A stretch of DNA of 64,000 bases from a bacterium. GTDB taxonomy: Bacteria; Patescibacteriota; Minisyncoccia; Phycocordibacterales; Zambryskibacteraceae. Made by a program: the position numbers and the translations under genes. Shown piece after piece: positions 12,554-62,316 of this stretch (position 1 is its first letter; the number at the start of each line of letters is the position of its first letter). The notes under the pieces are model-generated. The model did no database searches. It had not been told where the DNA came from and saw only the letters and a list, made by a program, of their open reading frames with translations. The stretch spans positions 128,001 through 192,000 of the forward strand of contig JAUSGI010000008.1 of assembly GCA_030649135.1 (NCBI GenBank). The letters run 5' to 3'.

Positions 12554-13383
12554 CCGTTCGATTAGCCAAGAGATTCGGGGGAGAAATAATCTCTGCCGAT
12601 TCGCGACAAGTATATAAGGGTCTTGATATCGGCACCGGCAAGATTACCAAGCAGGAAATGCGGGGAGTCCCCCATCATCTGCTGGATGTGGTAAATCCTC
12701 GAAAACAATTCTCGGCATCGAAATACAAAAAACTAGCTGATGAAAAAGTACGATATATCGCACAAAAGCATAAGTTACCCATTGTGGTAGGAGGGACGGG
12801 GTTTTATATTGATGCCTTGACAGGCAGAGCTAATTTTCCGGAGGTGGGACCCAATCTTCTATTACGCAAGAAGCTGGAGAAAAAAACTGCGTCTGAACTT
12901 TTCCGAATGTTAAATAAAAAGGACCCCCGGAGAGCTGGAGCAATTGATTTGAGAAATAAAGTACGTGTGATACGGGCATTGGAAATTGTCGAGGCTCTGG
13001 GCAAGGTGCCCCAAGCTAGCCCCAAGCCCCTAGAACCTAGCCCCTTTATCTACATCGGCCTCAAACCGGATAATCTTGACGGGAGAATTCATAAGAGACT
13101 AATAGAGAGGCTTGATGGGATGATTCGCGAGGGCAAAAAACTCCACACTCAAGGACTCACCTACAAGCGCATGCACCAGCTCGGGCTGGAATATAGATAT
13201 GTTGGTATGTACCTACAAGGCAAGCTCTCACGGGAAGAAATGGTTGATAAGTTATATATTGAAATAAAACGTTACGCCAAGCGCCAAATGACTTGGTTCA
13301 AACGCAATAAAAAGATTAGGTGGTTTAAACCGGAGGAATACAAAAAGATAGAAAGATTAGTAAATGTTCAGCTAAACACCTAA
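12493..13383 (+). CDS. miaA: tRNA dimethylallyltransferase
   Basis: P-loop GPTASGKS at the N-terminus and an IPP-transferase fold. Overlaps the ATPase 3' end by 61 nt. Confidence 0.9.
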   Translation: MAQQKVLVILGPTASGKSDLAVRLAKRFGGEIISADSRQVYKGLDIGTGKITKQEMRGVPHHLLDVVNPRKQFSASKYKKLADEKVRYIAQKHKLPIVVGGTGFYIDALTGRANFPEVGPNLLLRKKLEKKTASELFRMLNKKDPRRAGAIDLRNKVRVIRALEIVEALGKVPQASPKPLEPSPFIYIGLKPDNLDGRIHKRLIERLDGMIREGKKLHTQGLTYKRMHQLGLEYRYVGMYLQGKLSREEMVDKLYIEIKRYAKRQMTWFKRNKKIRWFKPEEYKKIERLVNVQLNT

Positions 13384-13776
13384 AAACTTTCGAATTTCAG
13401 CTATGGCTAGCATGTCATGGTCAATCATCTGGAGATTTCCTAAATCATCAAACTTCCGCCAACTCTTGCCTTGACCCTCATGCTGTATAAGCGGCTGTGA
13501 AGAATCGTATTCCTCAACAAAAACGTACTTGATATTTTCATCTTCCTTCCAATTAAATTTCTGAACTAACACCCGAACTGGCTTAGATACTTTATATTCT
13601 AGTTCTTCAAAAATTTCTCGCTCTAAAGCCGCCTCTGGAGTTTCCCCTTTCTCTATCCCTCCCCCAAAGAAACCCCAGTAGTTAGGAAGTCTTTTCGCAT
13701 CCTCGTCTCTATGTTGAAGAAGGATTTCCTTATCCTTATTGTATAAGGCCAATACTGAAATATTTCTTACTGCCAT
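13372..13776 (-). CDS. Nudix hydrolase
   Basis: Nudix box GGGIEKGETPEAALEREIFEELEY. Confidence 0.8.
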   Translation of the reverse strand: MAVRNISVLALYNKDKEILLQHRDEDAKRLPNYWGFFGGGIEKGETPEAALEREIFEELEYKVSKPVRVLVQKFNWKEDENIKYVFVEEYDSSQPLIQHEGQGKSWRKFDDLGNLQMIDHDMLAIAEIRKFLGV

Positions 13777-13779
13777 ATG

Positions 13780-13850
13780 CGGGCGATCGAGGAATCGAAC
13801 CTCGGATAGCAGATTTGGAGGCCGCAGTTATACCACTTAACTAATCGCCC
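13780..13850 (-). tRNA. tRNA-Trp (anticodon CCA)
   Basis: Hand-folded on the minus strand: GGGCGAT-TA-GTTA-AGTGGTA-TAAC-T-GCGGC-CTCCAAA-TCTGC-TATC-CGAGG-TTCGATT-CCTCG-ATCGCCC-G. There is one mismatch at 31:39. Confidence 0.8.
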
Positions 13851-22041: not shown

Positions 22042-22112
22042 TGCGAGATGCGAGAATCGAACTCGCGCCCGATGCTTGGGAAGCACCAGTTCTGCCACTA
22101 AACTAATCTCGC
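22042..22112 (-). tRNA. tRNA-Gly (anticodon CCC)
   Basis: Hand-folded. Acceptor GCGAGAT/ATCTCGC, anticodon loop TTCCCAA and T-arm GCGAG-TTCGATT-CTCGC. Confidence 0.8.
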
Positions 22113-22113
22113 A

Positions 22114-22200
22114 TGGTGCCCGGGGTGGGCATCGAACCCACACGACCTTGCGGTCACGAAATTTTAAGTCTCGCGCGTATACCAATTCCGCCACCCGGGC
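22114..22200 (-). tRNA. tRNA-Leu (anticodon TAA), long variable arm, CCA encoded
   Basis: Hand-folded. Acceptor GCCCGGG/CCCGGGC, anticodon loop CTTAAAA, variable arm TGACCGCAAGGTCGTG and T-arm GTGGG-TTCGATG-CCCAC. Confidence 0.85.
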
Positions 22201-22275
22201 TGGAGGCGTAGGCGGGAATCGAACCCGCGCATATCGGTTTTGCAGACCGCCGCGTTTCCACTTCGCCACTACGCC
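22201..22275 (-). tRNA. tRNA-Cys (anticodon GCA)
   Basis: Hand-folded. Acceptor GGCGTAG/CTACGCC, anticodon stem CGGT/ACCG, anticodon loop CTGCAAA and T-arm GCGGG-TTCGATT-CCCGC. The 3' end abuts the tRNA-Leu 5' end with no spacer. Confidence 0.75.
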
Positions 22276-22392
22276 ATTGTCCAGCTAACTAACTTTTATA
22301 CATTATCATAATTGATAAATCATTGCTTTTTTGAAATACTGTACTCTTATACCCCGCTTCACCCCGCCATGGCGGGGCGAGACGGGGCAAGC

Positions 22393-22465
22393 GCGCCTAT
22401 AGCTCAGCTGGTAGAGCAGATCCCTCTTAAGGATAAGGTCGCAGGTTCGATCCCTGCTGGGCGCA
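22393..22465 (+). tRNA. tRNA-Lys (anticodon CTT)
   Basis: Hand-folded. Acceptor GCGCCTA/TGGGCGC, D-arm GCTC-AGCTGGTA-GAGC, anticodon loop CTCTTAA and T-arm GCAGG-TTCGATC-CCTGC. Confidence 0.8.
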
Positions 22466-22467
22466 CT

Positions 22468-22548
22468 GGGCGGGTGGTGAAATGGTAGACACGCCAGTTT
22501 TAGGAACTGGTGCCGCAAGGCATGGAGGTTCAAGTCCTCTCCCGCCCA
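22468..22548 (+). tRNA. tRNA-Leu (anticodon TAG), long variable arm
   Basis: Hand-folded. Acceptor GGGCGGG/CCCGCCC, anticodon stem CCAGT/ACTGG, anticodon loop TTTAGGA, variable arm TGCCGCAAGGCATG and T-arm GGAGG-TTCAAGT-CCTCT. Confidence 0.85.
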
Positions 22549-22616: not shown

Positions 22617-23555
22617 ATGAATCACCAAAAAGGGTTTATCAATATAGTGTATACGGTAGTAGTAGTTGCTCTGCTTATTGGAGCGGGAGCATACCTTACC
22701 ATCCGACAAATCAATAAACCGTATATTTCCCCTACCGCCACCACTACTCCTCCAGGCGCCACCACTACTCCTCCTACTCCACCGCCACCACCCGCACCAG
22801 GAGTTTGTACTGCCGATGTCAAACAATGTCCTAACGGCACTTACGTAAGCCGAAGTGGTCCTAATTGCACCTTCGCCGCTTGTCCATCTTCTTTGCCACA
22901 ACCACAATTCCAGCTCATCTCTATGCGTGAAGGAGAACGGGAAAGTTCGTTCCTGCTGGAAAGAATTTATACAGACCGCGTGACTGGTCTTAATTTCGGA
23001 GAATATCCGGTAGCGATGGAACAGGGCAATCCAGTCACTTTGCGTCTCGGTGAAGTCGTAAGCAACGGTTGTACTGTCACACTCACGCTTACCAAAATTG
23101 AAGGAAATGTCGCTACGTTTAGCAAGAAAACAGATTCCAGTCAGATTTGCCCGATTTGTCTTGCTCGCAATACGTTAATCGATACTCCTTCTGGTACAAT
23201 TCCCGTACAAGATTTGGAAAAAGGCATGGCTATTTGGACTCTAAACCGATTAGGCGAGCGTATCTCCGCTATTGTCGTAGAAACTACGAGAACTCCTGTA
23301 CCCCCGACCCATCAAGTGATTCATCTTGTTCTTAATGATGGCCGAGAAGTATTCGTATCCGGAGGACACCCAGTTACCAATGGGCAAAAAGTACAAGACC
23401 TCTTGGTCGGTGAAGTTTATGACGGCTCTTATGTATCGAGTGTAGAATCTATCCCCTACCGCGAGCAGGCTACATATGATGTCTTACCATCAGGCGAGAC
23501 CGGGTTCTATTGGGCTAACGGCATCTTACTTGACAGCACACTGAATCATAAGTGA
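22617..23555 (+). CDS. membrane-anchored Thr/Pro-rich, Cys-rich protein with a C-terminal Hint (bacterial intein-like) domain
   Basis: N-terminal TM helix, a TTTPPGATTTPPTPPPPP linker and a Cys-rich module. Hint blocks are present: CLARNTLIDTPSGTIPVQDL, SGGHPVTNG and TYDVLPSGETGFYWANGILLDS. Confidence 0.7.
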   Translation: MNHQKGFINIVYTVVVVALLIGAGAYLTIRQINKPYISPTATTTPPGATTTPPTPPPPPAPGVCTADVKQCPNGTYVSRSGPNCTFAACPSSLPQPQFQLISMREGERESSFLLERIYTDRVTGLNFGEYPVAMEQGNPVTLRLGEVVSNGCTVTLTLTKIEGNVATFSKKTDSSQICPICLARNTLIDTPSGTIPVQDLEKGMAIWTLNRLGERISAIVVETTRTPVPPTHQVIHLVLNDGREVFVSGGHPVTNGQKVQDLLVGEVYDGSYVSSVESIPYREQATYDVLPSGETGFYWANGILLDSTLNHK

Positions 23556-25474
23556 AGCAAGAAGAAAATAATATACTTGAAGGGATTGTACGCGTCACAG
23601 GTTCGGGTGTCGGCTATTTCCCTGTGCCAAATGCCGAAAATGACTTGGAAATCCAGCCGGAGAATCTAAGCGGCGCTCTGAATAGAGACAGGGTCAAAGT
23701 CGAGTCACTTCACACGGAAATCCTTGGCAGAATGCAGGCCAAAGTGGTGGATATCATAGAGCGCCATAAAACAGCCTTTGTGGGCACTCTGGAGAAGGCC
23801 GACGAGGGATTTTTCCTCGTGCCGGACGACAAGCGTATGTATCGGGATATTTTCGTACCAGAAGATAAAGTGCTGAAGGCCAAAGAGGGGGACAAAGTCC
23901 AAGTCAGATTGACCTTGTGGCCCGATACATCAAAGAGTCCGAAGGGAGAAGTGATTCGGGTGATAGGCCGAGCCGGTGAACACAATGCCGAAATGCTCGG
24001 TATTGTTTATGAGAGCGGGTTTGAAGTTGACTTCCCTGCCGAAGTGGAGCAAGAAGCCCAAGCATGGAAAGAAAAATACAAACAAGAAGATATGCTCAAA
24101 GACCGTAAGGACTTCCGGGAAACCACTACCTTTACCATTGACCCCGCAGATGCCAAGGACTTCGACGATGCTCTATCTTTTAAAATACTGCCAAACGGTG
24201 GCTGCGAGATTGGTATTCACATTGCGGATGTTTCTCATTTCGTAGTGGAAAAGACCGAACTCGATCGCGAGGCGCGCAACCGAGGCACTTCCATTTATCT
24301 CGTAGACCGTACTATCCCAATGCTTCCGGAAATACTTTCCAATGACCTCTGCTCCCTTAATGCCAATGAACCCAAATATGCTTTCTCGGCCGTCTTTGTG
24401 ATAGATAAAGAAGCCAAAGTCAAAGAACGCTGGTTCGGTAAAACACTCATCAAATCCGATAAGCGCTTCACCTACGAAGAAGCCCAAGAAATTATGGACC
24501 AGGATAAGGGAATATTTGCCGAAGAGCTTAAAACTTTGAATGCGCTCGCCAAAAAACTTCGTGAAGAGAGATTTAGAAATGGCGCCATTGATTTTGAAAC
24601 CGATGAAGTGAAGTTTGAACTTGACGATTTGGGCAAACCCATCCGAGTGTACAAGAAGGCGCGTAAAGATACCCAAAAACTCATAGAAGAATTCATGCTG
24701 TTGGCTAATCGCGAGGTAGCCACCCATATGCATACCGCTAATGATAAGAACAGCCGTGCCGCCTTCGTCTACCGCATTCACGATGCGCCGGACAGAGAAA
24801 AAATTGTGAACCTTGCCACTTTTGTCAAAGCTCTTGGCTTCGAGCTCAAGAATAAAGATGGAGAAACTACCGGTAGCGACATCGCCCGGATGTTAAGTTC
24901 GGTGGGTGGCACTCCCGCGGAAATGCTTATAAAAACTGCCGCTATCAGGTCAATGTCGAAAGCCATATATTCCACTTCCAACATCGGCCATTTTGGACTC
25001 GCTTTCGAATACTACACTCACTTCACCTCGCCTATCCGCCGTTACCCCGACTTAATGGTTCACCGCCTGCTCCTACGCTTCTTATTGAATGGTAAAATCG
25101 AGCAAGACGAAATTATCAAATATCAAAGACTCTGTGATGACTCAAGCGAGCGCGAGCTCGAGGCGGCAGAAGCGGAACGAGCTTCTATCAAATACAAACA
25201 GGTTGAATATATGCAGGAACATATCGGTGAAGAGTTTGACGCTATAGTCTCCGGCGTTTCGGAATGGGGCATTTATGTCGAAGAGATTAATACCAAGGCG
25301 GAAGGTATGGTCAAACTACGCGACATGAAAGATGATTTCTATGAGCTGAATGAGAAACTTTATGCCATCGTGGGCAAAAAAACCGGCAAGAAATATTCCC
25401 TAGGCGATAAAATCCGAGTCAAACTCGTCGCCTCCGACCCAGAAAGAAAGACTTTAGACTTCCAGTTTGTTTAA
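23552..25474 (+). CDS. rnr: ribonuclease R (RNB family 3'-5' exoribonuclease with C-terminal S1 domain)
   Basis: RNB signature HFGLAFEYYTHFTSPIRRYPDLMVHR, cold-shock-like N-terminal domains and a C-terminal S1 domain. Confidence 0.9.
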   Translation: MKQEENNILEGIVRVTGSGVGYFPVPNAENDLEIQPENLSGALNRDRVKVESLHTEILGRMQAKVVDIIERHKTAFVGTLEKADEGFFLVPDDKRMYRDIFVPEDKVLKAKEGDKVQVRLTLWPDTSKSPKGEVIRVIGRAGEHNAEMLGIVYESGFEVDFPAEVEQEAQAWKEKYKQEDMLKDRKDFRETTTFTIDPADAKDFDDALSFKILPNGGCEIGIHIADVSHFVVEKTELDREARNRGTSIYLVDRTIPMLPEILSNDLCSLNANEPKYAFSAVFVIDKEAKVKERWFGKTLIKSDKRFTYEEAQEIMDQDKGIFAEELKTLNALAKKLREERFRNGAIDFETDEVKFELDDLGKPIRVYKKARKDTQKLIEEFMLLANREVATHMHTANDKNSRAAFVYRIHDAPDREKIVNLATFVKALGFELKNKDGETTGSDIARMLSSVGGTPAEMLIKTAAIRSMSKAIYSTSNIGHFGLAFEYYTHFTSPIRRYPDLMVHRLLLRFLLNGKIEQDEIIKYQRLCDDSSERELEAAEAERASIKYKQVEYMQEHIGEEFDAIVSGVSEWGIYVEEINTKAEGMVKLRDMKDDFYELNEKLYAIVGKKTGKKYSLGDKIRVKLVASDPERKTLDFQFV

Positions 25475-25477
25475 ATA

Positions 25478-27598
25478 CTATTTCGCAACCTCGACGGCTT
25501 CGCCAAACGAGATGGAAAGCAGTTTGGAAATGCCGTTTGAGCCCATGGTCACGCCGTAAATCACTCCGGCGCGGCTCATAGTCTCGCGGTTGTGGGTTAT
25601 TAAAATAAGTTGGGAATGCTTTGAGAGTATCGCGACCAAATCTCCATATTTTTTAGAATTAGATTCATCAAGTGCTGCGTCCGTCTCATCAAGAATAATA
25701 AATGGCGGCGGGTTAACTTGAGAAATCGCAAAAATAAGAGCGATAGAAGTAAGCGCCCGCTCCCCGCCGGAGAGCATCATGAGACCCCGAATTTTTTTCT
25801 TAGGCAGACTGACCTTGATATCCAAACCCCCCTCCCTTGCCACGCCGGAGCCTTCGGCGGAGGCGGGTTCTAATAGATCTTCATCATTTGTTGGAGCTAA
25901 TTTATTTTCTTTAACTAAAACCAAACTAGCCTCTCCCCCACCAAACATAGAAACAAAGAGCTTGCCAAATTCTTTATTAATACTCTCAAGGCCAGAGCTA
26001 AATTCAACCGCCAAGCGCGTCTCCAACTCCTTTATGAGCTCGGCAAGAGTATCGGCTGACTTCTCGAGGTCAAGCAACTCGCGGGCCAAGAAAGCGTCAC
26101 GCTCAGAGGTATCTTTATACTCTTTATGCATTTCTTCCATGCCGGAAATATTTGAATCTTCAAGCCGGATTTTAAGCTTCTCGATAACACGTTTACGTTC
26201 TTCTTGTCTTTGCCTGTCTTCTTCTACCACCAACTTCTCCGTTCCGGTATTTATATCCTTGAAACGAATAGCCTCGGTCCCCACCAGATGCCCCACCTCT
26301 TCAAGTTCGCGGGCAAACTCCTCCGCCTCCAAATTGAGTCTGTCCTCACGCGCTTTCAAGGAATTCAATTTTGAAACCAATTCATTCTCCTCCGACATGA
26401 TGCGGAAAACCGCTTTCTCCGCATTAGAAATTTCTTGCTCTTTTTCTTTCGCGGTCGTGAGAGATTTTTCCAGTTCCGCTTGGCGTTTTTTCAATTCATC
26501 TATCTTCGATTGTGCTTCCGCTACCAACCTTGAGTCTGTGCTATGTTTCCTGTCCTTAATAAACCCCTTAAGCTTGCCGAGAATTTCCGCAATACTGGAG
26601 AGCAGGCTGACCTCTTGATATAAATGCTCCACATCCTTAAGCCGTACAGTCTTAAATTCATCAGAGGCTGAAAGTTTTTTTTCATTTTCTATCACTCTTT
26701 CTTCAGCTATGACAAGCCCCTCGACCTTGCCGAGCTCTCTCGTCAAGTCATCCCTCTGCTTCCGAACCACACTTAATCCCGACTCAAATTCCAGTACCTT
26801 TTTCGCACTCTGTGATTCCTTGGAAAGTTTTTCCAGAGCTTCGTTTAAGGGTTTCCGCTCGGCCAGAAGCGATGCCCGGGAGAAAGCGATATGAATGTCT
26901 TCCCGTTTGAAGTATTCTCCGGCAAGCGAGATTAATTCCTCACGCATACCTTCCGCCCTCTTGAACTTCTCGACTTCCCTGCCGAGAAATTTCAGATGCG
27001 GGGCGATTTCCTTGCGTAAAGCCTGGGTCTGCGCAATATTTTCGAATGTTTTCTCAAGTTTGCGTTCACTCTCCAGACGTTTGTATTGATAGAGCTTGAG
27101 CCCCAGTGCATCTTCCACCATGCTCTTCCGGTCCTTGGGGCTGGCAGAGAGAATTTTATCGGCTTCGCCCTGGGAAATGATGTGATGGCCGGAAGCGCCA
27201 ATGTGAGCCCGCGCCAGAAGCTCGAGAATATCCTTGAGCCGTACCGTACTGCCATTGATTAAATACTCGTTTAAACCATCACGATGAACCGTTCGTTCGA
27301 TAGTCACCTCCGGAAAATCTATATCAAAAATCTTTTTTGTATTGTCAAAAACCACCTTGACAGATGCTCGGTTGGCGCGTGGCTCGGAAGTAGCACCGTT
27401 CCAAATCAAGTCCTCGCCCCGCTTGCCACGCATGCTCTTGATGGATTGCTCCCCGAGCACAAAGCGGAAGGCTTCGGCGACATTCGACTTGCCCGAGCCA
27501 TTGGGCCCGACAATGGCCGAAACGGGCGAATCAAATTCAAAAATATTCTTCTTGGCAAAAGACTTAAACCCCGAAAGTTCTATCGACTTCAAGTACAT
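25478..27598 (-). CDS. smc: SMC-family chromosome segregation ATPase, short form (706 aa) with no recognisable hinge domain
   Basis: N-terminal MYLKSIELSGFKSF...GPNGSGKSN, a C-terminal ABC signature LSGGERALTSIAL plus Walker B ILDETDAALD, and a coiled-coil middle. The start is trimmed to the Met matching the SMC N-terminus, 1 nt downstream of the rnc stop. Confidence 0.8.
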   Translation of the reverse strand: MYLKSIELSGFKSFAKKNIFEFDSPVSAIVGPNGSGKSNVAEAFRFVLGEQSIKSMRGKRGEDLIWNGATSEPRANRASVKVVFDNTKKIFDIDFPEVTIERTVHRDGLNEYLINGSTVRLKDILELLARAHIGASGHHIISQGEADKILSASPKDRKSMVEDALGLKLYQYKRLESERKLEKTFENIAQTQALRKEIAPHLKFLGREVEKFKRAEGMREELISLAGEYFKREDIHIAFSRASLLAERKPLNEALEKLSKESQSAKKVLEFESGLSVVRKQRDDLTRELGKVEGLVIAEERVIENEKKLSASDEFKTVRLKDVEHLYQEVSLLSSIAEILGKLKGFIKDRKHSTDSRLVAEAQSKIDELKKRQAELEKSLTTAKEKEQEISNAEKAVFRIMSEENELVSKLNSLKAREDRLNLEAEEFARELEEVGHLVGTEAIRFKDINTGTEKLVVEEDRQRQEERKRVIEKLKIRLEDSNISGMEEMHKEYKDTSERDAFLARELLDLEKSADTLAELIKELETRLAVEFSSGLESINKEFGKLFVSMFGGGEASLVLVKENKLAPTNDEDLLEPASAEGSGVAREGGLDIKVSLPKKKIRGLMMLSGGERALTSIALIFAISQVNPPPFIILDETDAALDESNSKKYGDLVAILSKHSQLILITHNRETMSRAGVIYGVTMGSNGISKLLSISFGEAVEVAK

Positions 27599-27599
27599 A

Positions 27600-28289
27600 C
27601 TACTTCCAGCCTTTAGACTCAAGCGCGGTCCGGGCGGCCTCTTGCTCCGCATCCTGTTTGGATTGGCCTTCTCCTTGACCATACAAATCGGCGCCCACGG
27701 AAACACTGACAACGAAACGTCTGTCATGGTCCGGACCGGATTCACGCACTGTTTTATACGTGGGGGTTAGCCCCGTATATTCTTGGGCTTTCTCTTGGAA
27801 AAGACTTTTGGCATCTATCCAAGCGCCATTTTTAAGAATCTCTTCTGTCAGTGGCGCCACGTGAGCCAGAATAAATTTTTTCGCAATCTCATAGCCTTGG
27901 TCAATATAAATGGCGCCGATGATGGCCTCCAGAGTGTTGGCAAGGATATATTGACGCGCTCGGCCGATGTCTTTCGTTTCCCCCTTAGAAAGAAGCAGAA
28001 AATCGTTGGCGCCCAGGGTTTGCGCCACGCGGCTACAAGTATCGGCATTGACCAAAGCCGAGCGTAGCGAGGTTAATTCTCCCTCGGTGGAATCTTTCAG
28101 ACGCCCATAGAGATAATCGGTGATAACCAATTCCAACACGGCATCACCCAGAAATTCCAAACGCTCGTTATGCTCCAGAGCGGAGCCCCGATTCTCGTTT
28201 ATGTACGAACGGTGAGTGAAGGCTTGCTTGAGCAAACCCTTGTCCTTAAATATCACTCCCGCTCTTTCTTCAAATTTCGAGAAATCCAT
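27600..28289 (-). CDS. rnc: ribonuclease III
   Basis: RNase III signature ERLEFLGDAVLEL and a C-terminal dsRBD. Confidence 0.92.
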   Translation of the reverse strand: MDFSKFEERAGVIFKDKGLLKQAFTHRSYINENRGSALEHNERLEFLGDAVLELVITDYLYGRLKDSTEGELTSLRSALVNADTCSRVAQTLGANDFLLLSKGETKDIGRARQYILANTLEAIIGAIYIDQGYEIAKKFILAHVAPLTEEILKNGAWIDAKSLFQEKAQEYTGLTPTYKTVRESGPDHDRRFVVSVSVGADLYGQGEGQSKQDAEQEAARTALESKGWK

Positions 28290-28293
28290 ATAA

Positions 28294-29214
28294 TTATTTA
28301 GACTCCGCTAATTTTTTGATAGCTTTAGTCACGATAGGCAGGATATCATCATAAAAGTTTAGAGCCAAGATGTCGGCGAGTTTGAACCATCGCACATCAT
28401 CCAACCCTCCTTGCACCTCTTTTTTTTCGAGAGTCAGTTCTTGGTATGATGCCTCCGCTAAAAAGTAACTGACGTGCTTCAATATTTTGCCTTTCTCCGG
28501 ATGATAGGTGGAATATGAATTTTCTCCCAATCGTTCGATAATGTTGACTGGTATGCCGAGTTCCTCTTGCACTTCTCGGCGAAGACCCTCCTCCTCGCTC
28601 TCCGTACCCTCCAATTTACCCTTAGCCAGAGTCCAATGCCCGAAGACATCATGAACCAAAGCCAGATAAATGTCTCCCCCATGGCGAGCATAGACCATGG
28701 CCCCGGCCAAACGTTCGACCGGCAATTTATCCAGAGGCACATTACCATATTTTTTCTTGGCTTTCGGCGCATCAAATTTACCCGGCTCCCCCATCTCCTT
28801 ATAAACAGCGCCCAACACTCCATTAATAAACCTTCCGGAAGTATCCCCGCCGAAAGTCTTGGCAAGCTCAATGGCCTCATTAATAGCCACCTTGGGCGGT
28901 ACCTCATTACGGTCCGCGAATAAAAGCTCGGCTAGTCCGATACGCAGAATATTACGGTCAACGACGGAAATTTTATCAATGGGCCAGTCTGGTGCCGCCT
29001 TTTCTATCAGAGTGTCCAGATCTCTTTTTTTCTCAAGCACCTGCCTTAAGAGCTTGTCCATAAACGGGCGGTCGTTTGTACCCGGCGCAAATTCAGCGAG
29101 AGTACGTTCAAAGATTTGGAATATCTCACCGGGCTTAGCGCCTTCGAAGTCCCAGGCAAAGAGCGTCTGGAGAATGATGGACCTCGATAGATGTCGGTTG
29201 GACATAAAGAACAA
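28294..29214 (-). CDS. nusB: NusB antitermination factor fused to a C-terminal Nudix hydrolase domain
   Basis: N-terminal half is NusB-like (SRSIILQTLFAWDF...INGVLGAVYKE). C-terminal half carries the Nudix box GKLEGTESEEEGLRREVQEELGI. The start is TTG in the track, or the ATG 9 nt downstream. Confidence 0.8.
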   Translation of the reverse strand: MFFMSNRHLSRSIILQTLFAWDFEGAKPGEIFQIFERTLAEFAPGTNDRPFMDKLLRQVLEKKRDLDTLIEKAAPDWPIDKISVVDRNILRIGLAELLFADRNEVPPKVAINEAIELAKTFGGDTSGRFINGVLGAVYKEMGEPGKFDAPKAKKKYGNVPLDKLPVERLAGAMVYARHGGDIYLALVHDVFGHWTLAKGKLEGTESEEEGLRREVQEELGIPVNIIERLGENSYSTYHPEKGKILKHVSYFLAEASYQELTLEKKEVQGGLDDVRWFKLADILALNFYDDILPIVTKAIKKLAESK

Positions 29215-29219
29215 AGAAA

Positions 29220-29423
29220 CTATTTGGTTTTTTTCGCCTTTTTCTCGAGTTTAGCTCTTAGATCGATAATTTTTCTGCCACGGTAAGTACCACTCACTTT
29301 GGAAAGTCTGTGCCGTAAATGAAAATTACCTGACTCATCTTTTGAGAGAGCGGGCTTGGCGAGCGCGTGGTGAGAGCGCCTGTTTTTGGTATGAGACCTC
29401 GTATGTCTCATTCGTACTGTCAT
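29220..29423 (-). CDS. rpmF: 50S ribosomal protein L32 (no zinc-binding cysteines)
   Basis: MRHTRSHTKNRRSHHALAKPALS...HLRHRLSKVSGTYRGRKII matches the L32 family. Confidence 0.75.
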   Translation of the reverse strand: MTVRMRHTRSHTKNRRSHHALAKPALSKDESGNFHLRHRLSKVSGTYRGRKIIDLRAKLEKKAKKTK

Positions 29424-29447: not shown

Positions 29448-29499
29448 GCGAACGAAAAGCCCCGTGAGACGCCATGCTTGCGCAGGCTATCTCACGGGG
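29448..29499 (-). terminator. possible intrinsic terminator: 10 bp perfect stem CCCCGTGAGA / TCTCACGGGG with a 20 nt loop
   Basis: Sits at the 3' end of the minus-strand Nudix gene and is followed by CTTTTCGTT on the minus strand. Coordinates are approximate. Confidence 0.35.
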
Positions 29500-29983
29500 A
29501 GTGGTTGGGGTCCGATGCGGGTTCGATGCCGAGCTCGCGGCAGGCCTCCATATAATGTGGCAGATGTTTGGGAAAAAGAATGTGCCCAAGAACTTCCGCC
29601 CTGACCCAGTAAGGGGCGGACAACAGATCTCCATCGTCGTCGATCATCTCTTCTTGTCTCATATCGCCGAGGCAATCATCTATGTCGACCAGAAAGCCGT
29701 ACTGGGTATGGGTGGAGGTTACTTCAACGCTCCACTCTTTTTTCCAATGGTAGACGCAAAGCGATGTCTCCTCAAATACTTCTCTGGCCATAGTCTGACC
29801 CGGATACTCGTGATGGTACTTCAGACCGCCGCCAGGAAACTTAATCTGAATCTCGCCCAACTTACCAGTCTTGGGGTGGACGGACTGGTAATTGATTACC
29901 AGAAACTCGACACTCCCGCCCGTTGTCTCCTGGGGAGAACGGACATTGCGGCAAGGCACGGCGCAAGAAAAGTACTTAGTCAT
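29492..29983 (-). CDS. Nudix hydrolase (GC-rich)
   Basis: Nudix box GGGLKYHHEYPGQTMAREVFEETSL. Confidence 0.75.
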   Translation of the reverse strand: MTKYFSCAVPCRNVRSPQETTGGSVEFLVINYQSVHPKTGKLGEIQIKFPGGGLKYHHEYPGQTMAREVFEETSLCVYHWKKEWSVEVTSTHTQYGFLVDIDDCLGDMRQEEMIDDDGDLLSAPYWVRAEVLGHILFPKHLPHYMEACRELGIEPASDPNHSP

Positions 29984-30019: not shown

Positions 30020-30646
30020 CTAATTATAATACATATACTTGCCTTTTGTCAAACGAGTTAGGAAACTCCGACGGTGGATAACGGTTGGGCCAAACTTTCG
30101 GATCGCTTTCCGATGCTGACTGGTGCCATAGCCCTTGTGTATATGAAAATTGAATTCTGGAAATTTTTTAGAGAGTCTGACCATTCTCTTGTCTCGTATT
30201 ACTTTTGCCATGATGCTCGCAAGCGAAATAATCGGAATCTTTTCATCCCCTTTTATAACCGTCAGTTGATGTCTAAACCGGTCCGGCGCTTTTATACCTC
30301 CGTCCAAAAATACTTGAGCATCCTCCGGTACGGAAAGAGAGGCGAGGCTTCTCTTAATACCGAGTCTGATGGCGTAGGTGATGCCCTTGCGGTCAATAAT
30401 CTTTTCCGACACAAGCGAAACCGCAAAGTCGAGCACACCCTTTTTACGAGCCTCGAGAGCCAAAGCAAACCACAGTTCCCTATCACCCGCGGAGAGTTTT
30501 TTGGAATCTTTGATGCTCTTGAAAAAGTTTTTACTTGCCCTACGAAGCTTAAGCGAAGTGGGGTTGGGAATCGCCACTGCTCCTACCGCCACCGGACCGG
30601 CCAAAGGCCCTCTACCCGCTTCATCAATACCTACGACATAACTCAT
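30020..30646 (-). CDS. rnhB: ribonuclease HII
   Basis: N-terminal MSYVVGIDEAGRGPLAGPV with the DEAGRG catalytic motif. Confidence 0.9.
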   Translation of the reverse strand: MSYVVGIDEAGRGPLAGPVAVGAVAIPNPTSLKLRRASKNFFKSIKDSKKLSAGDRELWFALALEARKKGVLDFAVSLVSEKIIDRKGITYAIRLGIKRSLASLSVPEDAQVFLDGGIKAPDRFRHQLTVIKGDEKIPIISLASIMAKVIRDKRMVRLSKKFPEFNFHIHKGYGTSQHRKAIRKFGPTVIHRRSFLTRLTKGKYMYYN

Positions 30647-36598: not shown

Positions 36599-37065
36599 TA
36601 CTTAATGTCGATAATCTTATACGACATTATACCATTGGGGGTCTCGAAAGAGAAAGATTCACCTTTTGATTTGCCGATGGCGGCGAGACCTAAGGGAGAA
36701 TGCATGGAAATTTTGCCGAGATTGGCATCGGCTTCTTCAGAACCAACCATGGTGTAAGATTTACGAGATTTGTCGGATTCTTTTTCCACACTTATGACTG
36801 AACCAACTGTCACCAAATGCGTGCTTTGGGTCGAAACAATTTTAGCTGATTTTAAAATAACCTCGAGGCGATTAATGCGGTCTTCCAAGATGGCCTGACT
36901 ATCACGCGCCTCCTGATATTCCTGATTTTCGGATAAATCTCCGAGAGACTTGGCGTATTCCAAAGCGTCAGCAACCTCTTTGCGTTTTACCGTCTTTAGA
37001 GATTCCAATTCCGTTTCCAGCTCCTTGAACTTCTCTTGGGTCAGGTATTCTTGCTTGATGTTCAT
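36598..37065 (-). CDS. greA: transcription elongation factor GreA
   Basis: N-terminal coiled-coil and a C-terminal FKBP-like domain. 155 aa. Confidence 0.9.
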   Translation of the reverse strand: MNIKQEYLTQEKFKELETELESLKTVKRKEVADALEYAKSLGDLSENQEYQEARDSQAILEDRINRLEVILKSAKIVSTQSTHLVTVGSVISVEKESDKSRKSYTMVGSEEADANLGKISMHSPLGLAAIGKSKGESFSFETPNGIMSYKIIDIK

Positions 37066-37142
37066 GGAGTCAAATTTTAAATTAATTATTGGCAGACATC
37101 ATATCCCACTATCCACCAAAAAACAACCCTCTAGCAAACAGG

Positions 37143-52114: not shown

Positions 52115-52135
52115 TGTCAAAGACCGTCTTTGACA
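52115..52135 (+). repeat. REP-A copy 1 (TGTCAAAGACCGTCTTTGACA)
   Basis: Exact palindrome located 10 nt upstream of the RAYT start. Confidence 0.85.
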
Positions 52136-52145
52136 TAATAGGTTC

Positions 52146-52793
52146 ATGGGTAATAGAGACTATAAAAAATTTGCCACTGGAACTATCTTTCATATATACA
52201 ATAGAGGCAATAACCGAGAAAAAATTTTCCATGATGAGCAGGACTATAAAGCGCTAATATTTAGAATTGGTCTGGCACTAGGATTCGAAGAAAAAGAACT
52301 GTCACATCAATTATGTCACCAACCATATTCAAGAATCAGGATTACAGGCACACATAAAGGAAAATTCAAGCTACACGCTTTTTGTCTTATGCCAAATCAT
52401 TTTCACTTACTTATCGAACAGTGTGAAGATGTGCCTATATCGAAAATTATCTCGAAAATATGTGCAAGTTATGCTAAATATGTAAATAAAAAATACAAAA
52501 GAGTCGGGCATGTATTTCAGGATAAATTTAAAGCAGTACTTATGGAATCAAATGAACAACTTATGTGGATTTGCACATATATACACATGAATGCAGTGAA
52601 GGACAGTATGGTCAAACATCCAGATGAATATGTATGGAGTAGCTACAATGACTATACAACTGACAGAAATCTGCCAATCATAAATACTGACTTTTTGATC
52701 TCACTATTTGGTGATAAAAATAGTTTCAAAAAAGAGACCCTCCGCCCTTACTCAGATAGCCTGTCAAAGACCGTCTTTGACATTAAGAGTTGA
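52146..52793 (+). CDS. REP-associated tyrosine transposase (RAYT; IS200/IS605 Y1 HUH family)
   Basis: HUH motif MPNHFHLLIE and catalytic Tyr region YVWSSY. The last 10 codons are encoded by REP-A copy 2. Confidence 0.85.
   Translation: MGNRDYKKFATGTIFHIYNRGNNREKIFHDEQDYKALIFRIGLALGFEEKELSHQLCHQPYSRIRITGTHKGKFKLHAFCLMPNHFHLLIEQCEDVPISKIISKICASYAKYVNKKYKRVGHVFQDKFKAVLMESNEQLMWICTYIHMNAVKDSMVKHPDEYVWSSYNDYTTDRNLPIINTDFLISLFGDKNSFKKETLRPYSDSLSKTVFDIKS
52762..52782 (+). repeat. REP-A copy 2
   Basis: Identical 21-mer, overlapping the RAYT 3' end. Confidence 0.85.
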
Positions 52794-58871: not shown

Positions 58872-59222
58872 TTACTTAACTATCTTAGTTACGATTTCTA
58901 CAATTTTATTTTGGATTCCAATATCCCCAACACCTCGAGTCTTATTGCCAAGGACTGGCTTAAGATTAATCATTGAATCGAATTCAATAAAATCTTCCCC
59001 AGATTTTTCTAGATATAAGTTGATGCCCCAAGTATCCTCCCCGCGCGAATTTTCTTTTTCAATAAGTTGCGACTGTATATCGACATGGAGTTCCCCACCA
59101 ACTCCCAAGATACCTTGCCCGACATCTACTACCGCCTTTATGATATCGCCATAAAGTTCGCGAGCGAGTTCCCTTAGCTCTTCTCTGGAAATTGAATCCT
59201 TGACTATTCTTGTTTCAACCAT
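58872..59222 (-). CDS. hypothetical protein
   Basis: Track ORF, stop-start adjacent to the previous hypothetical. Confidence 0.35.
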   Translation of the reverse strand: MVETRIVKDSISREELRELARELYGDIIKAVVDVGQGILGVGGELHVDIQSQLIEKENSRGEDTWGINLYLEKSGEDFIEFDSMINLKPVLGNKTRGVGDIGIQNKIVEIVTKIVK

Positions 59223-59257
59223 GGGGATATAATAGCATCAACTTTTGACCTTTTTGT

Positions 59258-60446: not shown

Positions 60447-61163
60447 TGTCAAACACTGGGTGTTAGACAACTATAGGATCTTCAAATAATCTAGCTCTTC
60501 TTCTAGAAGTTTTGCTGGACTTGTCCTAGTAAACTCTTGGTATTTGTCTGGGCCTTTGAATTGACCTAGAACGATTTCTGATAAAAGCAGACTTCCCCAT
60601 CGATTTTCTTTTATAAAATCTTGATAGCTTGACCAAGGATATTGGTCTTCTTTCTTAAACCACTTCCCAATCTCTCTCGGGTTTCTATGAATATAGCTAG
60701 ACAGATATAAAAGCTGATGATCACCTTCTATATGAACCGCACGATAAGGCCCTTGAAAAACATGTCCAGATTTATCATATCTGGTATTGTAATATTTGGC
60801 ATAAGCATTAAGCACTCTCTGCATATAAGCTGCTATGCCTTCTTCTTCAACTTCTTTGACCAATAAGTGGAAATGGTTTGGCATGATACGGAAAGAAACA
60901 AGCTCAACTGTACGCTTTTTAACAATCTCCTCTGTATTATCTAACACCCGGTGTTTGACGAAATCCTTTACTGACCTACCAACCTGTGGAAAAGTTACTT
61001 CTGATTGGAAGTAAAGAATGAGGAAAAGAAATCTGTTGTAGTCTCCTGTATCATGAAAAATAACTTGTTTGTGTACACCCCTATTACACAAATGATAATA
61101 CTCGTTTGGAGACAACCGTGTTCTTCTCATATATTCATTATGTCAAATACCCGGTGTTTGACA
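60447..61163. mobile_element. second REP–RAYT module (REP-B, RAYT, REP-B)
   Basis: Imperfect palindromes TGTCAAACACTGGGTGTTAGACA (60447-60469) and TGTCAAATACCCGGTGTTTGACA (61141-61163) abut the stop and start of the transposase gene. Confidence 0.7.
60471..61130 (-). CDS. REP-associated tyrosine transposase (RAYT; IS200/IS605 Y1 HUH family), second copy
   Basis: HUH motif MPNHFHLLVKE and YPWSSY. A partial REP-B (AACACCCGGTGTTTGAC) lies inside the gene at about 60943-60959. Confidence 0.85.
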   Translation of the reverse strand: MRRTRLSPNEYYHLCNRGVHKQVIFHDTGDYNRFLFLILYFQSEVTFPQVGRSVKDFVKHRVLDNTEEIVKKRTVELVSFRIMPNHFHLLVKEVEEEGIAAYMQRVLNAYAKYYNTRYDKSGHVFQGPYRAVHIEGDHQLLYLSSYIHRNPREIGKWFKKEDQYPWSSYQDFIKENRWGSLLLSEIVLGQFKGPDKYQEFTRTSPAKLLEEELDYLKIL

Positions 61164-61182
61164 AACTTATATATCCTTAATA

Positions 61183-61737
61183 TTACTTGACCGGATGGTC
61201 AAGTTGATAAATCTGGGTATCGTAGCCTCTGGTTTCTTCGTCATTTCTGGAAAGTCCCAGAGATTCAAGTTCTTTGAATAATTCTTCCCTGACTTCCTCT
61301 GCGTCGATGTCTTCTTCAGTCAGCTTTTCAAGCTCGATAAATGTCCCAAGTTTTTCCACTTCATCCAGACAAATCTCATACGGTCCGAGTTTGCCCTTCC
61401 GACGCATTTTCTTTACCTCGACTACCGGATACCACCCCAGTAGCTCAAGCATATGGTGGACTTGTTTCGGATCTGCCACTTCTGTCTCGCACTCAATATT
61501 GTCGCTCTCGTTGGAACGCTGCTGTTTGAGGGTAAGCTCAGCAGAATCCTTCAAGTAGCGGATGCGAATAACAATATCTCCCTCCTGTGCCGATTGGAAT
61601 TCATTCCTCGAACCCTTGAGAGAATAGACAACATCATGCTGGCTTATCGGTTCTGAAAGAACGCAGCCTTTCTCTTTGAGCTTTTGCTCAATTTCTTCCA
61701 GATTCTTCGCTTTCAGCTTTACTTCTATTTCTCTCAT
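61183..61737 (-). CDS. CYTH-domain protein (class IV adenylate cyclase / triphosphate-tunnel metalloenzyme-like)
   Basis: N-terminal EIEVKLKAK plus conserved acidic tunnel residues. Confidence 0.75.
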   Translation of the reverse strand: MREIEVKLKAKNLEEIEQKLKEKGCVLSEPISQHDVVYSLKGSRNEFQSAQEGDIVIRIRYLKDSAELTLKQQRSNESDNIECETEVADPKQVHHMLELLGWYPVVEVKKMRRKGKLGPYEICLDEVEKLGTFIELEKLTEEDIDAEEVREELFKELESLGLSRNDEETRGYDTQIYQLDHPVK

Positions 61738-61741
61738 GCAG

Positions 61742-62269
61742 TTATTTATTAAATTCCGTCATGGCGCGAGTGAGGCCGTGTTCGACGATAGCTTCAACCG
61801 CTCCTTGTGCGCGTTTGAACACTTTTTTCAAAATCTCTGTTTCAGATTTTTTAAATTCTCCCAAAATATGCTTTTCTACTGCTGCCTCCCCTTTCGGCTT
61901 TTTGATTTTGCCGGAAGGAGTAACCGGTGAAATGCCAATGCGAATACGAATAAACCCTTCAGTCTTGAGAGCGCGGATAACTGACTCTAATCCCCTGTGC
62001 CCGCCCGAAGAACGATTATAAGAAACTTTCAGCGTACCTATGGGTAAATCCAAATCATCATAAATCACGATTAATTTCTCCGCCGCCTTTTTGTTTTTGA
62101 CTACCTTGGCGACACCACTTCCCGATTTATTCATAAAGGTATCAAGATGTACCAACTTTATTCCCGTTAATTCTTTTTTTGTCAAATACTCCAGTGTCAA
62201 GCGACCGGTGTTGTGCCGGGTGCGCGCATACTGGTCGCCGGGATTACCTAAACCCACGATGATATACAT
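61742..62269 (-). CDS. pth: peptidyl-tRNA hydrolase
   Basis: MYIIVGLGNPGDQYARTRHNTG. Confidence 0.9.
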   Translation of the reverse strand: MYIIVGLGNPGDQYARTRHNTGRLTLEYLTKKELTGIKLVHLDTFMNKSGSGVAKVVKNKKAAEKLIVIYDDLDLPIGTLKVSYNRSSGGHRGLESVIRALKTEGFIRIRIGISPVTPSGKIKKPKGEAAVEKHILGEFKKSETEILKKVFKRAQGAVEAIVEHGLTRAMTEFNK

Positions 62270-62316
62270 ACCGCTATTGTGTCAAATCAAGTTAAAGAAT
62301 ACAATCTTAGCAAATT

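Follow-up and report, generated by a model that had tools for sequence, protein, structure and literature searches.

Fusion of NusB with an ApnA-type Nudix domain in a conserved gene block of Patescibacteria

The gene and its neighborhood

The window analyzed here, a stretch of 64,000 nucleotides in its full length, carries a gene, designated nusB::nudix, whose single product joins a NusB domain to a Nudix domain. It lies in a compact block of genes on the minus strand, the elements of which are listed below in the direction of transcription.

30023..30052, minus strand: sigma-70 consensus promoter-like site TTGACA-18-TATAAT (consensus scan, 12 of 12 matches, a pattern match only)
29492..29983, minus strand: nudix2, a divergent Nudix gene with the box GLKYHHEYPGQTMAREVFEETS (Pfam NUDIX 22.3 bits, cutoff 21.1; loose box match)
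29220..29423, minus strand: rpmF, ribosomal protein L32 (Pfam Ribosomal_L32p, TIGR01031)
29214, minus strand: in-frame TTG upstream of the nusB::nudix ATG, adding 3 aa to give 306 aa (ORF 28294-29214)
28294..29205, minus strand: nusB::nudix CDS, 303 aa from the ATG at 29205, stop codon at 28294-28296
27600..28289, minus strand: rnc, RNase III (Pfam Ribonuclease_3 and dsrm)
25478..27598, minus strand: SMC-family ATPase, about 706 aa from the Met at 27598 (Pfam SMC_N at both protein ends)

According to the ORF list, the ORF 28294-29214 on the minus strand runs without interruption. The length of 306 aa given for it in the preliminary description holds when it is read from the TTG at 29214, but the ATG at 29205 is most likely the true start, because the 303-aa product read from there is 100% identical to a deposited NCBI protein and the homologs of the fusion begin at the same Met.

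The gene rpmF lies 14 nt upstream of nusB::nudix, and rnc begins 4 nt past the nusB::nudix stop codon. The named records have the order rnhB-rpmF-nusB::nudix-rnc-smc, of which the part from rpmF to smc is conserved in the 160 related loci: rpmF adjoins the fusion in nearly all of them, rnc lies downstream of it in almost all of those reaching far enough, and the SMC-family ATPase, for which the Pfam matches include no hinge domain, is the final gene of the block and follows rnc in the relatives as well. The same synteny is seen around a very divergent member of the fusion family on a 657-kb contig. The flanking genes named earlier as an rpmF–nusB–rnc–smc block were all recovered with Pfam. The nudix2 gene upstream of rpmF is less constant, being found in 16 of the 96 related loci that have rnhB, rpmF and a scored fusion. 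The predicted promoter at 30023-30052 is placed so that it could drive nudix2-rpmF-nusB::nudix-rnc-smc, and this consensus site together with the tight spacing suggests that the fusion is co-transcribed with rnc. In E. coli, Nus factors are genetically linked to RNase III (PMC4807359).

Neither the window nor the 162 fetched loci were found to contain a 16S or 23S rRNA gene, and the window shows no enrichment of BoxA-like 9-mers (4 against 4.97 expected). Besides the fusion and nudix2 there is one more Nudix gene.

13375-13827: MutT-like Nudix gene

The window was originally thought to contain four Nudix genes, which has to be reduced to three (13375-13827, the fusion and 29492-29983), since no fourth one was detected by a regular expression for the box, by phmmer with approximate MutT and RppH queries or by Pfam on ten candidate ORFs. 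The CYTH-domain gene at 61186-61758 may have been counted as the fourth by mistake.

The fusion in related genomes

A survey of NusB architectures was performed on two sets of loci. Species-level genomes were scanned with an alignment of eight close Nudix sequences as the query, yielding at least 590 genomes with this Nudix subtype, the best 80 of which were judged; metagenome contigs (80 loci) were scanned with P0130, an apparent stand-alone representative of the same subtype. The NusB and Nudix domains share a single ORF in 79 of the 80 genomes and in 75 of the 80 metagenome loci, that is, in 154 of 160 independent loci. Five of the remaining six loci (four metagenomic and one genomic) are interrupted by contig ends, and the sixth, L144, is split by a frameshift, so the subtype is fused in each judgeable genome of the best 80. 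Both domains are also present in all of the best 120 homologs, which come from independent assemblies. The close Nudix relatives that seemed to be unfused turned out in the metagenome scan to be contig-end or gene-calling artefacts, and they were rejected as candidates for a split-gene ancestor since 75 of the 80 loci are fused, four end with the contig and one is frameshifted.

These counts also bear on the trivial explanation that two separate genes were joined by a frameshift or an assembly error. The two halves are indeed in different frames in two related contigs, L144 and L099, the latter being a frameshifted copy of the intact L100. Against this, the ORF is continuous in 154 of the 160 loci, which are independent of one another, and likewise in the best 120 protein clusters, drawn from several sources; in addition, the linker itself contains a near-invariant motif. 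An artefact is therefore ruled out by the homologs, the genome loci and the metagenome loci alike, and the probability left for it is practically negligible. The NusB–Nudix fusion reported in the preliminary description is genuine, given the single ORF in these loci and the identical deposited protein, and the sequencing error considered there is excluded.

Every named record with the fusion belongs to the ultra-small Patescibacteria, and current database records label the fusion proteins simply as "NusB". Judging from its distribution, the fusion is old and near-universal for this Nudix subtype. No literature on a NusB–Nudix architecture, in Patescibacteria or elsewhere, was found in a search in which subscription journals were thinly covered.

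The NusB domain and the linker

The encoded protein is divided as follows.

28795..29205, minus strand: NusB domain, aa 1-137, all-helical (Pfam, TIGR01951, AF2)
28705..28794, minus strand: inter-domain linker, aa 138-167 (AF2 and the alignment of 142 fusions)
28297..28704, minus strand: Nudix domain, aa 168-303, ApnA-hydrolase type (Pfam, profile, Foldseek)
28552..28620, minus strand: Nudix box GKLEGTESEEEGLRREVQEELGI, aa 196-218, canonical in this genome (regular expression, six-frame translation)

Few bacterial transcription factors are as conserved or as well studied as NusB. In the Nus complex, which modifies RNA polymerase on rRNA operons, it is the subunit that binds BoxA RNA and S10. 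The N-terminal half of the fusion is a recognizable NusB domain, as had been proposed: Pfam NusB (PF01029) matches residues 10-139 with an E-value of 2e-34 and 119 bits (cutoff 23), covering model positions 3-133 of 133, and NCBIfam TIGR01951 (nusB) gives 129.1 bits against a cutoff of 88.35, so that a failure of this half against NusB HMMs is excluded. RsmB models match it more weakly (48 bits or less versus 129 for NusB), and its top sequence match in the PDB is Aquifex NusB (1.4e-20). In the AF2 model, helices extend over residues 5-137 with pLDDT mostly 80-95, and the NusB half superimposes on NusB in the Aquifex NusB-NusE-BoxA complex 3r2c with a TM-score of 0.88 and an rmsd of 1.9 Å (Foldseek). 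In a manual alignment with an approximate E. coli sequence, F16 presumably occupies the position of the S10-interface aromatic residue (Aquifex Y16, E. coli Y18). Residue F126 aligns with Aquifex F122, the Phe stacking on BoxA U8, and D83 aligns with Aquifex E81, the acidic residue reading U8, which is a conservative change; both are at least 90% conserved in 116 fusions, and F122 and E81 are described as BoxA-contacting residues (PMC3177189). The residues expected to hold BoxA are kept in the NusB half. The gene probably encodes the organism's NusB, with S10 and BoxA binding predicted from the family.

At the start of the linker there is a near-invariant motif, G-E-P-G-K (aa 139-143), after which the sequence is Lys-rich and variable. 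It is 15-40 aa long in the 142 fusions (median 29), and E137, G139, E140, P141, G142 and K143 are 93-100% conserved among them. The AF2 model of the protein shows a NusB fold and a Nudix fold, each well folded, with a disordered linker between them; pLDDT falls below 50 at residues 140-149, pTM is 0.51 and there is no confident inter-domain contact. This arrangement in the model fits a tethered Nudix module.

The Nudix domain

The second half was described as a complete Nudix domain with a canonical box, and this is well founded: Pfam NUDIX (PF00293) matches residues 171-288 with an E-value of 1.2e-13 and 51.6 bits (cutoff 21.1), GKLEGTESEEEGLRREVQEELGI is an exact match to GX5EX7REUXEEXGU, and the AF2 secondary structure agrees with the alpha/beta/alpha sandwich of the Nudix fold. 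The family profile matches the Ap4A/Ap6A enzymes Aquifex aq_158 (7.7e-17), Ndx1 (1.8e-13) and CT771 (1.1e-12) as well as the eukaryotic Ap4A hydrolases of C. elegans (1.5e-10) and human (8e-10). Foldseek places ApnA hydrolases at the head of its list, with a TM-score of 0.87 to 3i7u and of 0.82-0.87 to Nudix enzymes. The ligand-side residues are retained, namely the HDxFGxWTLxKG strand, Tyr231, Lys243, Tyr247, Trp273 and Tyr285. Y231 is at least 90% conserved and aligns with the Tyr of the Aquifex, Thermus and Chlamydia enzymes, while the alignment with the C. elegans enzyme is displaced by five residues in the loop around it; ApnA hydrolases use a conserved Tyr located after the box to contact the base of the substrate (PMC5389931). 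A BLASTP alignment with an approximate human NUDT2 sequence reaches only as far as the Nudix box and was left out of the mapping of this Tyr. By sequence, profile and fold, the Nudix half belongs to the ApnA-hydrolase group, with the activity predicted.

Two other assignments were rejected. MutT-type (8-oxo-GTP) enzymes, MutT and MTH1, match the box region only, with E-values of about 1e-3 to 1e-4, versus full-length matches of 1e-10 to 1e-17 for ApnA hydrolases. Membership in the RppH family is contradicted by the NCBIfam RppH models (20.7 bits, cutoff 118), and the similarity in the PDB sequence search is marginal (BdRppH, E 0.0015; BsRppH, E 0.0097). Dcp2 is the next-best PDB group of the family profile behind the ApnA hydrolases, at 8.6e-8. 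In more distant relatives the Nudix domain occurs in other fusions, e.g. with shikimate kinase or DnaA-C.

Loss of catalytic residues and selection

All six box residues (G196, E202, R210, E211, E214 and E215) are kept in 74 of 142 distinct fusions (52%), and the box is degenerate in the other 68, whereas it is intact in 11 of 12 stand-alone relatives. The glutamate of the "RE" pair, E211, is present in only 92 of the 142 fusions and was lost or regained about 30 times according to parsimony on a quick NJ tree. The conservation of E215, R210 and E202 across the fusions is at least 94% and that of G196 at least 93%. The dN/dS values of the Nudix half, calculated from few unsaturated pairs (33 and 13), are 0.17 between canonical and 0.07 between degenerate members, close to those of NusB. 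By these estimates the Nudix domain is under purifying selection as strong as that on NusB, even where catalytic residues are gone.

Because the catalytic glutamates were repeatedly lost while the domain stayed under purifying selection, its conserved contribution is probably binding rather than hydrolysis as such. Hydrolysis is probably kept in the protein of this genome. The members with a degenerate box may have residual metal binding or slow catalysis, which is conceivable because E215, R210, E202 and G196 stay at least 93% conserved. Taken as a two-domain NusB with an ApnA-type Nudix domain, the protein is very probably genuine, functional and under selection.

Comparison with known systems

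The N-terminal 137 residues correspond to a full NusB of E. coli, Aquifex aeolicus or Thermotoga maritima by HMM, sequence and predicted fold. The known proteins have about 130-160 aa and stand alone, whereas the fusion adds GEPGK, the linker and a 136-aa C-terminal Nudix domain. The earlier statement that NusB is normally a stand-alone factor is correct as regards this form, with the qualification that a NusB-like domain is also found at the N-terminus of RsmB. To our knowledge there is no enzymatic or ligand-binding appendage on NusB except for the RsmB case. The 16S rRNA m5C967 methyltransferase RsmB/Sun is similar to the fusion in that a NusB-fold RNA-binding domain is joined to a catalytic domain acting on rRNA, but the N-terminal half of the fusion is NusB proper and its partner is a Nudix domain instead of a methyltransferase.

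With the ApnA hydrolases (Aquifex aq_158 for Ap4A, Thermus Ndx1 for Ap6A, Chlamydia CT771 and eukaryotic NUDT2), which match best by profile and fold, the fusion has in common the HxxGxW(T)xPKG strand ahead of the box and the Tyr beyond it. These enzymes stand alone with the box kept, in contrast to the fusions, about half of which are eroded, and the identity is only about 25%. RppH and Dcp2 resemble the fusion by functional analogy only, as Nudix enzymes acting on RNA 5′-end polyphosphate, the fusion being known from sequence; it also lies outside the RppH family (E 0.0015 to 0.01).

SuhB of the E. coli rRNA antitermination complex is likewise an enzyme-fold protein recruited to a NusB-containing complex, although it has an unrelated inositol monophosphatase fold and is a separate, dimeric polypeptide. 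The growth phenotype of SuhB is not tied to its catalysis (PMC4807359), and the structure of the complex has been reported (PMC6614801). The regulators NrtR and AraR, which are among the fold and profile matches of the fusion, carry a catalysis-impaired Nudix receptor on a nucleic-acid-binding domain; however, this partner is a winged-helix DNA-binding domain with the Nudix domain coming first, and the domain attached in the fusion is of an RNA-binding type. The degenerate box of the NrtR/AraR type is found in 68 of the 142 fusions but not in the protein of this genome, the box of which is intact.

Possible role of the Nudix domain

As a whole, the protein is best explained as a NusB with a Nudix accessory module acting at the Nus complex, an explanation we favor only tentatively, at somewhat less than an even chance. 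In this view the Nudix domain would assist the Nus/rRNA transcription complex as an accessory module, with the binding of a nucleoside-polyphosphate group as its conserved task. The most plausible ligand would be the 5′ terminus (triphosphate or Np(n) cap) of the nascent leader, which carries BoxA and is held nearby by NusB; both ligand and substrate are suggested by family resemblance only. The bound group would also be hydrolyzed (ppp or Np4 to p) by the protein of this genome and in roughly half of the lineages, making the leader ready for processing and turnover alongside the co-transcribed RNase III, and in the remaining lineages binding without hydrolysis would be enough. Leader cleavage by RNase III is independent of the 5′ phosphorylation state, so the need for 5′-end hydrolysis in rRNA maturation is not obvious. 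This specific mechanism, 5′-end or polyphosphate binding with or without hydrolysis at the Nus complex, is possible but somewhat more doubtful than the general explanation. The coupling of NusB to a nucleotide or RNA-cap-like substrate suggested in the preliminary description is plausible by analogy, because the Nudix half falls into the ApnA-hydrolase group, whose members include RNA 5′-end enzymes: NUDT2 converts ppp-RNA to p-RNA (PMC8616924), and the NpnN caps found on bacterial RNA are removed by RppH and ApaH (PMC7044304). A further reading, in which the Nudix domain is a reader of a nucleotide alarmone or of the 5′ end of the nascent rRNA leader (triphosphate or Np4 cap), with catalysis in some lineages and binding only in others, is fairly unlikely as it stands.

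The same erosion of the box can be read as the sign of a ligand-sensing regulator, in which a mostly non-catalytic Nudix receptor for Ap4A, ADP-ribose, an NAD derivative or ppGpp would alter the binding of NusB to BoxA or S10. The recurrent loss of catalytic glutamates under strong purifying selection with conserved ligand-side residues agrees with it, as do the structural and profile matches to the Nudix regulators NrtR and AraR, and the near-invariant GEPGK at the domain junction could relay a signal; non-enzymatic Nudix domains are a recognized class (PMC5389931). But true ApnA hydrolases are matched more strongly than NrtR and AraR, a pure sensor would not usually have the fully canonical box seen here and in about half of the lineages, and allosteric coupling has no structural support in an AF2 model with a disordered linker, a pTM of 0.51 and no confident inter-domain contact. 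Such a sensor is a serious candidate, if on balance an unlikely one; if true, rRNA antitermination would be responsive to the nutritional or stress state. If the Nudix fold served instead as a structural scaffold, a protein-interaction module that keeps the Nus complex of Patescibacteria assembled by contacting e.g. NusA, NusG, S4 or RNA polymerase in a SuhB-like role, the dispensability of the catalytic residues in a domain that is still selected would be accounted for, as would the conservation of the GEPGK junction motif and of several surface-type residues, and with SuhB there is already one example of an enzyme fold that serves the Nus complex independently of catalysis (PMC4807359, PMC6614801). 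A scaffold is nevertheless quite improbable, as the best-conserved residues are on the nucleotide-binding side of ApnA enzymes (the W-T-x-x-K-G strand and the Tyr) and the conservation of E215, R210 and E202 (at least 94%) suggests that a ligand or metal site has been kept.

Still less probable is an ordinary house-cleaning hydrolase of Ap4A or NTP, fused for co-expression and with no mechanistic tie to transcription. Genome reduction favors gene fusion, the box is canonical in this genome and Nudix domains are present in many unrelated fusions, such as those with shikimate kinase and DnaA-C among the distant relatives, all of which would suit such an enzyme. Among close relatives, however, this subtype is essentially never unfused, about 30 changes of the catalytic glutamate under purifying selection are not expected of a housekeeping enzyme when unfused relatives keep the box in 11 cases out of 12, and a MutT-like Nudix gene is already present in the window at 13375-13827.

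Significance

In a large lineage of Patescibacteria, judging from the sequences compared here, NusB is permanently extended by a flexible linker of about 30 residues and an ApnA-type Nudix domain. Throughout a major lineage NusB carries an additional domain that is under selection and has a nucleotide-polyphosphate-binding fold, and the annotation of the corresponding "NusB" records can be corrected cheaply. The box variants represent a natural series of "mutants" with which binding could be separated from hydrolysis. The architecture suggests that the rRNA transcription complex is physically connected with an RNA 5′ end or a nucleotide signal. If the Nudix domain is indeed a reader, the Nus antitermination/chaperone complex of Patescibacteria would sense the cell's nucleotide status or the state of the RNA 5′ end, and there would be a previously undescribed control point of rRNA synthesis within NusB itself, in organisms without much of the usual regulatory machinery. 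The fusion may help to explain how ribosome synthesis is organized in very reduced genomes.

The NusB–Nudix fusion gene and its neighbourhood

The minus-strand stretch 28294–29214 is a single open reading frame without interruption. Read from the ATG at 29205, which is the likely start since the homologs of the fusion begin at the same methionine (as MSNRH or MANRH), it codes for a 303-aa product with 100% identity to a protein deposited at NCBI from a 216,895-bp contig. Pfam places a NusB domain at residues 10–139 (E 2e-34) and a NUDIX domain at residues 171–288 (E 1.2e-13), both far over the gathering score. TIGR01951, the NCBI equivalog model for NusB, gives 129 bits (cutoff 88), with RsmB models scoring much lower, and the Nudix box, GKLEGTESEEEGLRREVQEELGI, is an exact fit to GX5EX7REUXEEXGU. 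With one ORF, both Pfam domains and TIGR01951 over its cutoff, the fusion claimed in the preliminary description is confirmed, and its neighbours rpmF, rnc and the SMC gene are as described there, by coordinates and domain matches. Instead of the four Nudix genes counted previously, just three could be detected across the window (13375–13827, the fusion and 29492–29983).

The rpmF gene lies 14 nt upstream of the fusion and rnc 4 nt downstream, followed after 1 nt by the gene for the SMC-family ATPase. The gene order rnhB-(nudix2)-rpmF-nusB::nudix-rnc-smc, where nudix2 is the second Nudix gene listed below, is conserved throughout the related loci, as well as around a very divergent fusion member on a 657-kb contig. 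Features at the upstream end of the block are:

30052–30023, minus strand: sigma-70 promoter-like site, TTGACA-18-TATAAT, a perfect consensus match (pattern only)
29492–29983, minus strand: nudix2, coding for a very divergent Nudix protein (box REVFEETS), a short way downstream of the promoter-like site and flanked by rnhB and rpmF

No relative of nudix2 was found in the PDB. Of 96 related loci, only 16 have a nudix2-like ORF, and the fused Nudix box is canonical, i.e. keeps all six key residues, in 15 of these 16 versus 33 of the 80 loci without it, an association which may be explained by shared ancestry.

The "smc" neighbour (25478–27598, minus strand) codes for only about 706 aa (722 aa in the homolog from related locus L161), with Pfam SMC_N matches at both ends and no hinge-domain match, and looks like a shortened SMC-family ATPase; a canonical bacterial SMC has about 1,180 aa. 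RNA and transcription genes are dense around the fusion, including, by Pfam, RNase III (27600–28289), RNase HII (30020–30646) and GreA (36601–37098), all on the minus strand. A 640-aa ORF convergent with smc (23552–25474, plus strand) is presumably RNase R-like by the look of its sequence.

Conservation of the fusion

The best 120 protein clusters (75–100% identity; NCBI, JGI, ENA and Logan) all contain both Pfam domains and are about 303 aa long, the named ones coming from Patescibacteria, Zambryskibacteria or Parcubacteria. Such proteins are already in public databases, labelled only NusB, and no description of a NusB–Nudix protein was found in the literature searched. With the Nudix half alone as the query, a search across GTDB, taking a single genome for each species, found this Nudix subtype in at least 590 species. 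Taxon-named records among the best 80 loci are all Patescibacteria (Zambryski-, Kaiser-, Adler-, Taylor- and Nomurabacteria, Paceibacterota and similar), and 79 of the 80 carry NusB and Nudix in one ORF, the exception being cut by a contig end.

Some cluster representatives appeared as stand-alone copies of the fused Nudix subtype. When metagenome contigs were scanned with one of them, 75 of 80 loci were fused, four were cut at contig ends and one was split by a frameshift; therefore the subtype is essentially never unfused among close relatives, and the apparent stand-alone copies were rejected. On two metagenome contigs, L144 (1–1203) and L099 (2520–3429), the halves lie in different reading frames, the split in L099 being a sequencing error rather than natural because this contig otherwise copies the intact L100. 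A frameshift or assembly artefact was rejected as the origin of the fusion, which is a conserved gene across genomes and metagenomes.

The two domains and their linker

The closest solved structures to the NusB half are the NusB proteins of Aquifex, Thermotoga, Mycobacterium and E. coli, and the AlphaFold model (pLDDT 83) matches NusB of the Aquifex NusB–NusE–BoxA complex with a TM of 0.88 and an rmsd of 1.9 Å. In that crystal structure, U8 of BoxA is stacked on by F122 and read by E81 (PMC3177189). These residues align with F126 and D83 of the fusion, both at least 90% conserved among 116 fusions. By everything that can be tested, the N-terminal half is a NusB family member. To our knowledge, RsmB is the one well-known case of a NusB-fold domain with a covalent partner, which there is a methyltransferase; the fusion joins NusB to Nudix.

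The linker has 15–40 residues (median 29). Right after the last NusB helix, E137-x-G139-E140-P141-G142-K143 is 93–100% conserved among 142 fusions, and its G-E-P-G-K part, at 93–99%, surpasses the Nudix catalytic glutamates in conservation:

28777–28791, minus strand: G-E-P-G-K motif (aa 139–143) at the NusB/linker junction

Despite its conservation the motif is predicted to be disordered; it may act as a hinge, or as a short motif to which RNA or a partner protein binds. The AlphaFold model shows two confident domains with no confident fixed packing between them, as the stretch 140–149 is disordered and pTM is 0.51.

The Nudix half is nearest to ApnA hydrolases by single sequence, family profile and fold. 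Profile matches include Aquifex aq_158 (7.7e-17; fold match with a TM of 0.87), Thermus Ndx1 (1.8e-13), Chlamydia CT771 (1.1e-12) and the C. elegans (1.5e-10) and human (8.2e-10) enzymes, the next group being Dcp2 decapping enzymes. The specificity motif of ApnA hydrolases is a tyrosine downstream of the Nudix box (PMC5389931); in the fusion it is Y231, aligned with the tyrosine of the three bacterial ApnA enzymes just named. The C-terminal half belongs, on sequence and fold, to the ApnA-hydrolase subgroup of the Nudix superfamily. A MutT-like identity was rejected, ApnA hydrolases being the closest group, and an RppH identity was rejected on sequence.

Loss of catalytic residues under selection

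All six key residues (G196, E202, R210, E211, E214, E215) are kept in 74 of 142 (52%) non-identical full-length fusions. E211, the "RE" glutamate, is retained in 92 of them and E214 in 114, the other four in 132–137 each. Among 65 close homologs (at least 75% identity), E211 is replaced by K, G or S in 16 and E214 by L in nine, and the box is canonical in 5/36 more divergent 50%-identity cluster representatives. Loss of E211 is recurrent, since its state requires about 30 parsimony changes on a neighbour-joining tree with the box columns left out. Of 12 more distant relatives that belong to the subtype and truly stand alone, 11 retain the strict box.

On average, pairwise identity comes to 0.57 in the Nudix half and 0.65 in the NusB half. 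Nei–Gojobori dN/dS values, calculated from few unsaturated pairs (33 canonical-box, 13 degenerate-box), are 0.17 and 0.07, respectively, for the Nudix half and a comparable 0.15 and 0.09 for the NusB half. Residues at least 90% conserved are D186, F188, G189, W191, T192, L193, K195, G196 and E215 and, further on, Y231, P236, G239, K243, Y247, W273, F274, Y285 and D287; they represent the strand before the box, the specificity tyrosine and adjoining positions, not the full catalytic set. Judged by sequence, the Nudix domain of the fusions is free of decay despite its eroding catalytic box. In mutagenesis of MutT and the C. elegans Ap4A hydrolase, loss of the "RE" glutamate lowers kcat about 10^3 to 10^4-fold, so the E211-substituted members are probably slow or inactive enzymes. 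Purifying selection on a domain with optional catalytic residues is an unusual evolutionary signature.

Other genes of the window

13375–13827, minus strand: MutT-like stand-alone Nudix hydrolase (Pfam 68 bits; best PDB matches MutT proteins, BdRppH 6e-7)
58875–59237, minus strand: DUF5674 protein (E 4e-26)
61186–61758, minus strand: CYTH-domain (triphosphate tunnel metalloenzyme) protein (E 9e-24)

The first of these probably serves the cell as its housekeeping Nudix enzyme. The CYTH gene shares 17 nt with the end of ORF 61742–62281, the N-terminus of which we take to resemble peptidyl-tRNA hydrolase. ORFs 52134–52793 (plus strand) and 60471–61142 (minus strand), about 220 aa each, resemble one another in an N-terminal signature (…FHIYNRG / …YHLCNRG), perhaps as paralogues within a family that is transposase-like or REP-associated. 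Five tRNA genes lie within about 500 bp (22042–22548); the minus strand carries three of them and the plus strand two.

Possible role of the fusion

The protein is a genuine NusB with intact BoxA-contact residues, to which an ApnA-type Nudix domain under selection is covalently tethered. Its gene is closely packed with rpmF and rnc in a block that follows a promoter-like site matching the sigma-70 consensus perfectly. The NusB half would clamp BoxA in the nascent rRNA 5′ leader. ApnA-type Nudix enzymes recognise a nucleoside with its polyphosphate chain and are able to act at the 5′ end of RNA: ppp-RNA is trimmed by NUDT2 (PMC8616924), and bacterial NpnN caps are removed by RppH and ApaH (PMC7044304). 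Since NusB would hold the leader and ApnA-type enzymes can work at RNA 5′ ends, it is most economical to suppose that the Nudix domain, being tethered, binds the polyphosphate or cap at the 5′ end of the NusB-held RNA and, in the window's genome, probably also hydrolyses it; in lineages without E211 or E214, binding by itself would be enough. We propose this specific mechanism tentatively, as a real possibility short of an even chance. The link of the RNase III gene to the role of the fusion is suggestive, as rnc mutations suppress Nus-factor defects in E. coli (PMC4807359). No rRNA was found in the window or the related loci examined.

The domain may instead be a ligand-sensing regulatory one of the NrtR/AraR type, which we consider rather unlikely. 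A purely structural module is improbable, with a precedent in SuhB, an enzyme-fold protein whose work in the E. coli Nus complex does not depend on catalysis (PMC4807359, PMC6614801). That a housekeeping hydrolase was joined to NusB for convenience is very improbable, as this agrees poorly both with the repeated loss of catalytic residues under selection and with the presence of another, MutT-like gene at 13375–13827. The suggested coupling of antitermination to a nucleotide or RNA-cap-like substrate is partly supported: the fusion is real and the link to a nucleotide or RNA end plausible, but the sequences of the family as a whole speak against hydrolysis as what is conserved in the fused domain.

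Through the fusion, a universal transcription factor carries an accessory domain throughout a lineage. NusB–Nudix, the mechanism of which we infer, is a testable, undescribed architecture in a poorly understood phylum.
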